Sequence record: OR757435
Length of the DNA stretch: 64,000 bases
Source of the DNA: Escherichia phage vB-EcoP-XT32
Strand: one strand, 5' to 3'
In this document: in pieces, positions 42,672 through 44,299 of the stretch
Layout: every line of letters begins with the position of its first letter
How positions within the stretch are numbered: the first letter of the stretch is position 1
Program-made: the position numbers and the translations under genes
Notes under the pieces: generated by a model
Seen by the model: the letters and a program-made list of their open reading frames with translations, nothing else
Told to the model about the DNA's origin: nothing
The model's database searches: none

Positions 42672-43272
42672 AAACTTTATCTCTATTTTCAGCTATAATC
42701 CAATCCAAGTAGTACCGAGCTTCCGAAATAGTTCGATTGTTGGATAATGTACAAGTTTCTAACTGCTCCCCTTCAATATAATTCCTAGAATCTCCAGAAA
42801 AATCACAACCATTCCTGTGAACTTGAACTACTACTACATTGAAAGACTTTTCTAGCTCTCTCACCTCTGCTTCAAACCCACCATCAGTAAACAGGATAAC
42901 ATCATTGTGATTCCTTCCTTCTGACTTGATACTATTTACTGCTTGGGTTCCCATGTAGTTCTTACCAAACATAGGTTTTAAGTAATCTTCACTTGTGGAA
43001 ATCATTAAATCTCTGACAGACCTACCTCCCCATTCAGGCCTAGGTTTTTCTTTCCAGTTTCGATCTTTATAAAACTCCAGAAAATCCTCCAAGTTCAAAC
43101 CTAATGCTGCGGAGGCGACTTTGTACATAGGCTCTTTAAATGATTTAATATAACGAGAATAAGACGCAATGTGGGATTTTAGTAACCACTCCTCAGCTAT
43201 CGTATCCTTACCACAACCCGGAGGCCCATTAAGAATTACTACTAAAGGTTTAGGCTCATTACTCATTTCCAC
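42658..43272 (-). CDS. P-loop nucleotide kinase, dNMP-kinase-like
   Basis: GPPGCGKDT Walker A near the N-terminus in a 204-aa protein; resembles phage deoxynucleoside monophosphate kinases. Confidence 0.5.
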   Translation of the reverse strand: MEMSNEPKPLVVILNGPPGCGKDTIAEEWLLKSHIASYSRYIKSFKEPMYKVASAALGLNLEDFLEFYKDRNWKEKPRPEWGGRSVRDLMISTSEDYLKPMFGKNYMGTQAVNSIKSEGRNHNDVILFTDGGFEAEVRELEKSFNVVVVQVHRNGCDFSGDSRNYIEGEQLETCTLSNNRTISEARYYLDWIIAENRDKVYGRS

Positions 43273-43655
43273 TCTCCAGTGATTTCCATATCTGCTTTAT
43301 CTCCCTTCTTAGTAAGGAGGATTGCTGGTTTACTCTTACTCTTCATATACTCAAACATGTGCATAGAACCTCTTGACTCTCCATCCCAGAAGACTATAAC
43401 TGCATCTGAATACTCACCCATGTCTACGTTTCGAAGTATCCCAGCCTTTTTGCCGAGAGTATTCCACGAAGGGATGAAACGTTTAATTGGGATATCGTTA
43501 TGCTTAGCAACAGTTTCTCCGTGAAGGTCTGGACCTCTTGCACCACCTGATACTACTTCTGAAATGAGCTTAGGGATTTCTTCTGGAAGTAAAGCCCACA
43601 TCTGAGTAAAAGAATGCCAGTCTATCGACCGGCTTCCTGCGATTATCACTTTCAT
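43263..43655 (-). CDS. SLOG/DUF2493-like Rossmann-fold protein
   Basis: [10 protein letters not shown] ... [10 protein letters not shown] ... GKKAGILRN ... [11 protein letters not shown] pattern typical of SLOG-type nucleotide-binding domains. Confidence 0.45.
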
Positions 43656-44299
43656 GTAATCAATCCTTGAAATTCTTCTTTATCAAAGTGCTTCTCTACC
43701 ACGTATTCATACAGATCTTTTAACTCTGCATAACGACGGTAGAAAGTTCCATGTGACATGCCAATAGTTTTCTGGATGTGATCATGGGGGATACCCAAGA
43801 AAATCATCGAGAACATATTAGCTAACTTCTGAGTATCCATCGTATCACTTAAATCTTGGAAGAAATAGAAGATACGGGACTCCATGAATGGGTCACCAAC
43901 AGAGTCTTGCTTATCCATAGCAATCTCTAAAGGACTATCAACCATATCAGGAGTACGGAACATATCAGCCTCTGGAATAGAGTAGATACGACGGTCTCCT
44001 ACAGTCTGCCTATTTGAGCGTATAGACCAGATAATGTTCTTGACTCGATAAGTCATATGCTCTTGGTCTTTCTCGTCCTCTAGGACTCTCTCATCCTGCT
44101 TAGCGAAGACAAATCTCCAAGCGTTCAAGAGCACTTCCTGTGCCACATCTTCTGCTTCATGGTAATCTCTGATATCGTACATGAAGAACTTGTGAACCAC
44201 TTTCCAGTTCACTCTGTAAAACTCTTCATAGTTTGAGATGTATTTAATAGGGATTCCATGAATTCGATATCTTGTAGGTGTTGTTTTCTTCGCCATCAT
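43652..44299 (-). CDS. sigma-70-family (ECF-like) sigma factor, putative
   Basis: [14 protein letters not shown] resembles sigma region 2.2 and C-terminal [21 protein letters not shown] resembles the region 4.2 helix-turn-helix; 215 aa. Confidence 0.5.

Follow-up and report, generated by a model that had tools for sequence, protein, structure and literature searches.

A SLOG-fold gene overlapping the sigma factor gene of a phiEco32-like coliphage is probably an accessory of DNA and nucleotide metabolism rather than a partner of sigma

When the stop codon of a sigma factor gene overlaps the start codon of the next gene, do the two products work together? The question is raised by a stretch of 64,000 nucleotides from Escherichia phage vB-EcoP-XT32 (sequence record OR757435; hereafter the window), in which two open reading frames (ORFs) on the minus strand, at 43652-44299 and 43263-43655, are joined through an ATGA made of the TGA of the first (43654-43652) and the ATG of the second (43655-43653). 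The source genome is a Kuravirus, that is a phiEco32-like coliphage, and the two ORFs are the orthologues of phiEco32 gp36, a sigma factor, and gp35, a protein of the SLOG fold. The initial annotation, made from the sequence alone, had described them as an operon coupling a sigma factor that may redirect late transcription to a SLOG-like protein that might sequester a nucleotide signal of host defence. We propose instead, with a probability of about 0.7, that the gp36 orthologue is accompanied by an accessory gp35 which has no partnership with sigma and which has a DprA-type pocket at work in a DNA and nucleotide module. The useful outcome is a negative one, namely that this stop/start overlap with the sigma gene is not to be read as a functional module; GenBank has carried an annotation of the neighbouring gene, gp35, since 2008.

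A search of PDB sequences found the sigma ORF to be identical at 213 of 214 residues to chain F of entry 9M7Y ('RNA polymerase ECF sigma factor'), a cryo-electron microscopy (cryo-EM) structure of the RNA polymerase (RNAP) from E. coli together with gp36 and gp79 of phiEco32 and a middle promoter (Xu et al., NAR 2025, PMC12276001). The ORF is also 99.5% identical to phi32_36, with one conservative substitution relative to gp36 (R instead of K at position 27 of the chain as deposited), it occupies the same slot between the gp37 macro gene and gp35, and it matches phrog_1740 ('RNA polymerase sigma factor') at E=6e-46. Sequence comparison thus shows ORF 43652-44296 to encode the gp36 orthologue, a divergent sigma factor of two domains, one sigma2-like and one sigma4-like, and no functional difference from phiEco32 gp36 is expected. 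General hidden Markov models (HMMs) detected it weakly: Pfam Sigma70_r2 gave 19.1 bits (E=1.2e-3) under a gathering score of 24, NCBIfam TIGR02937 (sigma70-ECF) gave 23 bits over residues 24-193 against a cut-off of 42.9, and no Pfam region-4 match appeared at E up to 1. The region 2- and region 4-like segments that had been noticed in the ORF are nevertheless settled by the near-identity to the 9M7Y chain, whose C-terminal domain is identical to that of the window protein. In that structure the N-terminal domain of gp36 has a sigma2-like fold, contacts the beta' clamp helices and reads A-14, A-13, T-12 and G-11 in the -10 region, and the C-terminal domain is sigma4-like with a shortened helix 4 and touches the flap tip helix and positions -37/-34 (PMC12276001).

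Binding to RNAP and promoter specificity have been published for phiEco32 gp36 (PMC12276001, PMC8948821), whose gene is classed as a middle gene (Lavysh et al. 2022, PMC8948821). According to earlier work summarised in the cryo-EM report, early genes of phiEco32 depend on sigma70 and middle and late genes on the gp36 holoenzyme, which uses AATGTA promoters centred at -11.5, and gp79 has opposite effects on the two, being inhibitory for sigma70 transcription and activating for gp36 transcription (PMC12276001). Since the window sigma is near-identical to this characterised protein, it can be taken to redirect host RNAP to middle and late promoters. The proposed redirection of late transcription is therefore sound, being borne out by the near-identity to gp36, by the promoter motif described below and by a gp79 homologue, and it is already known: the sigma factor, its promoters and its co-activator go back to 2008-2012 and are not a discovery. 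The sigma factor gp36 of phiEco32 was reportedly the subject of work by Savalia in 2008 and by Pavlova in 2012.

Natural relatives of the phage bear directly on whether gp35 belongs to this switch. In the complete genomes of phages SU7 (Suseptimavirus) and Bas92, tblastn found the sigma factor, the flap endonuclease (FEN) and gp79, and no homologue of the SLOG or the macro protein anywhere at E up to 0.01. The sigma gene of SU7 abuts a kinase-like gene, which is followed by the exonuclease gene, and on nucleotide alignment SU7 is missing exactly positions 43262-43657 of the window. The order in Bas92 is sigma, an unrelated 89-aa ORF and exonuclease, with 42673-43650 of the window replaced by that ORF and 44300-44754 deleted. 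Both are viable isolates that run the gp36/gp79 system without gp35. In Salmonella phage 7-11, a distance of 4 kb, occupied by FEN, ligase and several small ORFs, separates the sigma gene (gp47, experimentally validated) from a homologue of gp35 with 57.5% identity. The 7-11 sigma is a distant homologue of gp36 (15% overall identity, PMC8948821; 41% by tblastn, over the first 63 residues only) and sits in a gp40-sigma-FEN region as it does in the window, although, unlike the window, 7-11 has a bipartite, different promoter consensus and no gp79 (PMC8948821). Furthermore, the open complex seen by cryo-EM was assembled without gp35 (PMC12276001). Since relatives in nature operate this transcription switch in the absence of the SLOG gene, the overlap is not to be read as a functional module, and the coupling of sigma and SLOG that had been seen in it is not supported: the adjacency of the two genes is lineage-specific, and gp35 is an optional accessory cassette between the sigma and deoxynucleoside monophosphate (dNMP) kinase genes in one lineage.

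The overlap itself has a simpler setting. The ORF listing of 40-48 kb is a co-oriented string of minus-strand genes, and overlap is the rule across the whole middle-gene string, at four consecutive junctions, and not special to sigma and SLOG. The SLOG stop (TGA, 43265-43263) forms another ATGA with the dNMP-kinase start (ATG, 43266-43264), although the mechanical call of the kinase ORF begins 6 bases upstream at a GTG (43272), and the kinase stop (42660-42658) falls 14 nt inside the exonuclease ORF (ATG at 42671), so the overlapping ends of kinase and exonuclease noted earlier, like the two ORFs and their ATGA, are confirmed on reading the sequence. On the other side, the o-spanin stop overlaps the start of the macro-domain gene (TGATG), and the sigma ORF begins only 19 nt after the macro gene, an interval that contains an AAGGA Shine-Dalgarno string; every start from sigma to exonuclease is preceded by a Shine-Dalgarno-like AAGGA or GGAG. 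The phiEco32 RefSeq record has the identical order of phi32_40, spanins (39/38), macro/Appr-1-p (37), sigma (36), 'GTP-binding domain' (35), dNMP kinase (34) and exonuclease (33). We suggest that the sigma/SLOG ATGA would reflect the compact packing of this string rather than a partnership with sigma.

Cellular sigma factors of the ECF type typically have a co-transcribed cognate anti-sigma factor or other regulators, a classical arrangement of their genes that would favour gp35 as a dedicated partner of sigma, whether anti-sigma factor, chaperone or ligand-responsive modulator, with translational coupling setting the stoichiometry. The ATGA is found here and in phiEco32 and is kept in the Kuravirus records inspected, and both proteins are among the middle gene products of phage SU10 (PMC4281155). 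The gene downstream of sigma is, however, a DUF2493/SLOG gene and not an anti-sigma gene, and the known modulator, gp79, is encoded 19 kb away. Such a partnership is largely refuted by the natural deletions in SU7 and Bas92, it does not agree with the unlinked genes of 7-11 or with the similar overlaps at the next two junctions, gp35/kinase and kinase/exonuclease, and, in earlier work summarised in the cryo-EM report, RNAP purified from infected cells brought down two phage proteins only, gp36 and gp79 (PMC12276001). We consider it highly improbable, also in view of the distribution of the two families, which is very unequal.

With window positions 41800-44800 as the query, megablast against phage genomes returned 98 records, all of them Escherichia or Shigella phages of the phiEco32 group (best match vB-EcoP-XT18, 98.7%; phiEco32, 89.4% with one indel). 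The gp36-type sigma is present in 98 records of the phage database. Counted at an identity of at least 80%, the SLOG protein is in 68 records and the macro protein in 43, whereas the SLOG family as a whole reaches 408 phage records, 340 of which are at less than 60% identity and belong to other lineages, including N4-like, Bacillus and Campylobacter phages, Vibrio phage ICP1 and jumbo phages. For its viral context, 80 contig loci were obtained through the family alignment, their ORFs were called, and the genes at +/-1 and +/-2 in 70 loci (277 genes) were compared with Pfam. The neighbours comprise ThyX (13), 5'-3' exonuclease/FEN (8), ribonucleotide reductase (RNR)/NrdD (6), dCMP/dCTP deaminases (3), RNase H-like proteins (3), PnuC (3), MazG (2), PolA (2), D5 primase (2) and UvsY (1), and a topoisomerase was also seen; no sigma factor is among the families listed for these 277 genes. 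A gp36-like protein near the SLOG gene was confined to kuravirus loci, plus one weak match in a 7-11-like locus, and 18 of 81 loci have a FEN homologue within 5 kb of the SLOG gene. A fusion of the DUF2493 domain to the Dda-like helicase HelB occurs in Vibrio phage ICP1. Bacterial neighbourhoods are uninformative about the function of the family: 52 loci, found with a single peptide pattern, gave mixed neighbours, including an HTH/M78 regulator, TrkH, MCP and an aspartyl protease. Among bacteria, the marine alphaproteobacteria Kiloniella and Terasakiella conserve on their chromosomes a YAcAr protein of ~190 aa, which ends in an extension of ~90 aa without a Pfam match and whose gene has variable neighbourhoods (loci L098, L102, L139 and about 15 others, at 4001-4576).

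The DUF2493 family itself is the remaining point of interest, the sigma half being textbook phiEco32 biology with a cryo-EM structure of 2025. The window gp35 is 95.4% identical to phiEco32 gp35 and matches phrog_289 ('GTP-binding domain') at E=4e-25, a label for which no P-loop or GTPase match was found in Pfam and NCBIfam searches. With Pfam PF10686 (YAcAr) it scored 27.8 bits (E=2.2e-6), just below the gathering score of 28.2 since that model covers only the N-terminal 66 residues. A large protein search gave 404 homologues, mostly stand-alone proteins of 113-140 aa at 45-58% identity that carry PF10686, a minority with an additional weak match to PF02481 (DprA), and since such homologues are found at E values of 1e-20 to 1e-30, gp35 belongs to PF10686 by transitivity. 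The profile-HMM check suggested by the initial annotation was thus divided, with sigma70 region 2 and PF10686 under threshold, region 4 unmatched, and phrog_1740 and phrog_289 strong. The family is a stand-alone domain of ~115-130 aa with the motifs MKxIIAGSR, SGGARGxD, AGxxRN and WDGxSRG, and in an alignment of 55 members G7, R9, G37, A39, G41, D43, W64, A71, G72, R75, N76, M79, S94 and G96 are invariant, and at least 90% of the members also have S8. AlphaFold2, run on this alignment, predicted a six-stranded Rossmannoid fold (pLDDT 95.2, pTM 0.89), and the model has the three-layer alpha/beta architecture with Gly-rich loops after strands 1, 2 and 4.

A Foldseek search of the PDB with the gp35 model placed ShosA and DprA on top. 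The structural comparison figures were 11.7 for YpsA, 11.3 for ShosA, 11.1, 10.3 and 9.9 for DprA of three species, 9.4-9.9 for LOG-type proteins, 9.7 for a MoCo carrier protein and 9.0 for the SLOG domain of Thoeris ThsA with 3'cADPR; the known DprA domains closest to gp35 include those of H. pylori (4LJK/4LJR) and S. pneumoniae (3UQZ), and ShosA (8ZVA) is a DprA-like antitoxin. When the family profile was run against the sequences of solved structures, DprA was again the best match (E about 2e-3), with KVIIAGSR aligned to KVAIIGTR, VSGGARGVD to VSGGALGVD and RN to RN of H. pylori DprA (HpDprA). A phmmer search of PDB sequences with gp35 alone gave a marginal match to hepatitis E virus ORF2 (E=0.012) and noise, which we discounted; the family profile gave DprA instead. 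From PF10686 homologues, a confident predicted fold and structural matches, gp35 is a bona fide member of the DUF2493/YAcAr family within the SLOG superfamily, the DprA branch being its nearest, and the SLOG/DUF2493 likeness first noticed in this ORF was well founded.

In HpDprA a pocket for one base of single-stranded DNA (ssDNA) is formed by the motifs G-S/T/A-R (R52) and F/L/Y-x-x-R-N (R143, N144), and the exchanges R52E and R143E lower the affinity 315-fold and 173-fold (Wang et al. 2014, PMC3950713). The first motif is present in gp35, where G7-S8-R9 aligns to the GTR of HpDprA; of the second, the invariant R75-N76 aligns to R143-N144, with the invariant G72 and not F/L/Y at the first position. 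At the same time gp35 has neither the SAM domain nor the C-terminal domain of DprA and fails the DprA models (PF02481, DNA_processg_A, 11.2 against 29.6 bits, E=0.21; TIGR00732, 11.3 against 191). The catalytic motif of LOG phosphoribohydrolases is PGGxGTxxE with a catalytic Glu; its counterpart in gp35 is W90-D-G-x-S-R-G-T/S-x-H-M, with no conserved Glu after G-T/S, and no match to Pfam Lysine_decarbox was found in gp35. YpsA of B. subtilis (PDB 2NX2), also of the SLOG superfamily, is 13% identical to gp35 and belongs to another Pfam family (DUF1273) and a cellular context. ThsA (PDB 7UXS, bound to 3'cADPR) shares the fold and ranks below YpsA, DprA and LOG, and gp35, unlike ThsA, has no fused effector and is a phage gene outside any defence island. 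Hence gp35 is not a member of the DprA, LOG or ThsA families, while being in effect a minimal DprA-type Rossmann domain. A DprA/LOG-type enzyme was the outcome that the initial annotation had said would speak against it, and here the answer is split: DprA is the best profile match and GSR and RN are kept, yet the DprA models fail and the LOG Glu is lacking.

We propose that the pocket of gp35 (G7-S8-R9, G37-x-A39-x-G41-x-D43, W64, R75-N76, S94-x-G96) would bind a nucleotide moiety, and that gp35 would serve the module of DNA replication, recombination and nucleotide metabolism of the phage beside the dNMP kinase and flap endonuclease. Judged from its fold, motifs and neighbours, gp35 most likely acts in DNA or nucleotide metabolism by way of this DprA-type pocket. 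That the ligand is the exposed base and phosphate of ssDNA, by analogy with DprA, is a tentative choice, somewhat short of an even chance, and with almost the same likelihood the ligand is a free nucleotide or derives from NAD; ssDNA is put slightly ahead because of the profile match, the conservation of the motifs, the helicase fusion, the FEN linkage and a median isoelectric point (pI) of 8.8 in the family. Across lytic phages this 'mini-DprA' family is widespread (408 records) and strictly conserves the DprA-type pocket, and it is expressed: in SU10, mass spectrometry identified the gp35 homologue as the product of a middle gene (PMC4281155).

Several points weigh against the reading that we favour. 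The aromatic platform that F/L/Y provides in motif 2 of DprA is an invariant Gly in the gp35 family; the tight binding of ssDNA by DprA is that of a dimer whose domain has ~205 residues, and gp35 is half that size and has nothing that corresponds to the C-terminal part of this domain, which forms the dimer interface; and the pI of the window gp35 is just 7.97. The census of neighbours is at least as rich in enzymes of nucleotide metabolism as in DNA-binding replisome proteins, and a neighbouring PnuC transporter of nicotinamide mononucleotide (NMN) in three loci of the 7-11/Proteus type favours a small-molecule ligand. A literature search returned no experiment on gp35 or any DUF2493 protein, so that ligand and role are drawn from fold, motifs and neighbours. 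As to sigma, roughly two thirds of the phages that carry gp36 share the ATGA coupling, and the comparative data leave room for a lineage-specific, non-essential interplay of gp35 and sigma; an essentiality preprint (HIDEN-SEQ) has no kuravirus data.

Some of these points fit gp35 as a regulator or enzyme of nucleotide or NAD metabolism which binds or processes a free dNMP or NMP, NAD+ or an ADP-ribose derivative and makes no contact with DNA. Its neighbours elsewhere are mostly proteins of nucleotide metabolism (ThyX, RNR/NrdD, deaminases and MazG in the counts above), its gene overlaps that of a dNMP kinase here, and PnuC is adjacent or nearly so in three loci. On a 90.7-kb IMG/VR contig resembling 7-11 and Proteus phages (L003, 4300-5381), as in Proteus phage 3H10_20 (H78), the first base of the DUF2493 gene is also the last base of a gene for a PnuC-type NMN transporter, a hint that in that lineage the family is connected with NAD/NMN metabolism. 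YAcAr SLOG proteins of phages have been predicted to use NAD+ or ADP-ribose derivatives (Iyer et al. 2021, PMC7824862), the invariant polar set R9, D43, R75, N76 and S94 resembles a specific ligand site more than a DNA surface, and YpsA and LOG are among the structural matches. However, the family is without the conserved Glu of the LOG catalytic motif, its best sequence-profile matches are to DprA and not to LOG or YpsA, and the HelB fusion of ICP1 points to DNA. We regard this alternative as a real possibility that is on the whole rather unlikely, and prefer to place the DprA-type pocket in a module that includes DNA.

The initial annotation had gone further in linking the SLOG protein to defence, and the gene two positions upstream of gp35 gives that idea some substance. 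This macro protein (44319-44759, minus strand) matches the macro half of DarG, an antitoxin (E=3.9e-41 with NCBIfam NF048014, E=4e-44 with PADLOC DarG), and it was the only one to match a defence model when the sigma, SLOG, kinase and macro proteins were scanned with PADLOC. Judging by these matches, it is probably an orphan anti-DarT counter-defence gene, removing ADP-ribose from DNA; phage DarG mimics that neutralise DarT have been described in ICP1 and in chimalliviruses (PMC11481870, PMC13309987). Strict co-occurrence of macro and SLOG genes as a functional pair was considered and rejected, given the 43 and 68 records at 80% identity or more. A gp35 acting as a sponge or sensor for an immune nucleotide signal, such as the gcADPR of Thoeris or cyclic oligonucleotides, perhaps together with the DarG-like macro protein, would fit an accessory gene that is often lost, as many anti-defence genes are, and the absence of both cassettes from SU7 and Bas92; in another locus, one neighbour matched the CBASS inhibitor Acb3. 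It does not fit the PADLOC scan, in which gp35 matched no model, Thoeris included, nor the ThsA match, which is weaker than those to YpsA, ShosA, DprA and LOG, nor a context in 70 loci of replication and nucleotide metabolism rather than anti-defence clusters, nor the imperfect co-variation with the macro gene; and our literature searches found no DUF2493 protein described as anti-defence. We therefore think it improbable that gp35 sequesters a defence signal. There is likewise only a slim chance that DUF2493 proteins are a new class of phage accessories binding a NAD- or ADP-ribose-derived or other nucleotide signal and that in kuraviruses gp35 and the macro protein form a counter-defence pair flanking sigma, a chance kept alive by the fold shared with the SLOG domain of ThsA, the accessory nature of both genes and their joint absence from SU7 and Bas92.

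The promoters of the window agree with the assignment of the sigma factor. The gp36 consensus is tAATGTAtA, and six promoters have been mapped upstream of phiEco32 genes 6, 13, 26, 40, 58 and 68 (PMC8948821). The motif search that had been recommended found 5 copies of the exact 9-mer TAATGTATA in the window where 0.67 would be expected (a number attained by 0 of 100 shuffles for the 5 observed), four of them in sense orientation 30-60 nt upstream of ORFs (Table 1); only the exact 9-mer is informative, since a search that tolerates one mismatch shows no enrichment (16 copies, 20.2 expected). As had been remarked, no phage RNA polymerase was found among the eight window ORFs of at least 380 aa, which encode a terminase, a portal protein, tail proteins, two virion proteins without assigned function, a DNA polymerase and a primase/helicase. 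The gp36 orthologue would bind the host RNAP core and, assisted by gp79, transcribe from TAATGTATA promoters centred near -11, and the promoter at 46117-46125, which lies upstream of the gene string to which sigma belongs, could allow sigma to sustain its own expression once made. This P40 equivalent fits the published expression of sigma in two phases, beginning from host-type promoters and continuing from phage-specific ones (PMC4331800). A sigma70 promoter for the sigma gene has been predicted in SU10 (PMC4281155), and our scan for sigma70-type promoters around the cluster gave no excess over shuffles (16 against 17.7).

Table 1. Positions of the genes and transcription signals discussed, on the 64,000-nucleotide window.
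Feature	Position	Strand	Evidence or remark
Sigma factor gene, phiEco32 gp36 orthologue, 214 aa from second ATG	43652..44296	-	mechanical ORF one codon longer, start 44299
SLOG-fold protein, 130 aa, phiEco32 gp35 orthologue (DUF2493/YAcAr, 'mini-DprA')	43263..43655	-	start overlaps sigma stop
dNMP-kinase-like P-loop protein, phiEco32 gp34 homologue	42658..43266 (alternative start GTG 43272)	-	phrog_139 E=1e-41
5'-3' exonuclease/flap endonuclease, phiEco32 gp33 homologue	41853..42671	-	phrog_107 E=4.5e-65; Pfam 5_3_exonuc_N E=6.5e-6; 98.5% to phi32_33
Stand-alone macro domain, DarG-like, phiEco32 gp37 homologue	44319..44759	-	Pfam Macro E=5e-9
Spanin pair (Rz-like i-spanin and embedded/overlapping o-spanin ORF), same packed string	44759..45254	-	phrog_1152 E=1e-37, phrog_2425; phi32_38/39 annotation
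Terminator-like GC-rich hairpin and T-run, between gp40 homologue and spanins	45273..45290	-	pattern scan
phiEco32 gp40 homologue, first gene after the gp36-dependent middle promoter	45312..46058	-	phrog_6599 E=1e-118
phiEco32 gp79 homologue	63480..63725	-	tblastn 98.8% over 82 aa; phrog_8339 E=5e-56
TAATGTATA (P40 equivalent)	46117..46125	-	58 nt upstream of gp40-homologue start; also upstream of sigma gene
TAATGTATA (P26 equivalent)	35733..35741	+	upstream of 1473-aa virion protein gene
TAATGTATA	19987..19995	+	34 nt upstream of ORF 20029-20541
TAATGTATA	52313..52321	-	37 nt upstream of ORF 51953-52276
TAATGTATA, fifth exact copy	46189-46197	+	64 nt from P40-type element, points away from any + strand ORF

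Some details of these signals may be added. The P40-type element lies within a near-palindrome at 46107-46125, TAATGTATA-C-TATACATAA, and the fifth exact copy could be an antisense or divergent promoter, or due to chance. The hairpin, AGCCACC-TTCG-GGTGGCT followed by a T-run, stands between the promoter at 46117-46125 and the sigma gene, and this putative element may attenuate the autoregulatory transcript. The mechanical ORF of 1488 aa at 35735-40201 (plus strand) starts inside the P26-type element; since its match to phrog_14629 (function not assigned) starts at residue 16, the real start is placed at ~35780, and the product of 1473 aa is a very large virion protein.

The genes downstream of gp35 vary among relatives. 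The dNMP-kinase-like protein (42658-43272) has 204 aa here and 297 aa in phiEco32 (L001 4859-5752), where it carries an N-terminal extension of ~100 aa, the shared part being 67.5% identical. In the kinase slot of Bas92 (L085 29996-30265), the unrelated 89-aa ORF is yet annotated 'deoxynucleoside monophosphate kinase'. ORFs resembling HNH or homing endonucleases are interspersed on the minus strand of the middle-gene string at 40246-40611, 41272-41694 and 47040-47522, the second matching phrog_3106 (HNH, E=1e-39) and the other two showing HNH-type motifs by eye only, and they probably contribute to the mosaic differences among relatives. Elsewhere, the phiEco32 RefSeq record (NC_010324.1) labels a 42-aa ORF, phi32_50 (L001 10756-10884), 'RNA polymerase', and tiny ORFs in relatives are named 'DNA polymerase', 'terminase' or 'tail protein'; these names look like artefacts of annotation transfer. 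Lastly, the G+C content of the window falls to 0.307 at 56001-58000, compared with ~0.40-0.43 elsewhere.

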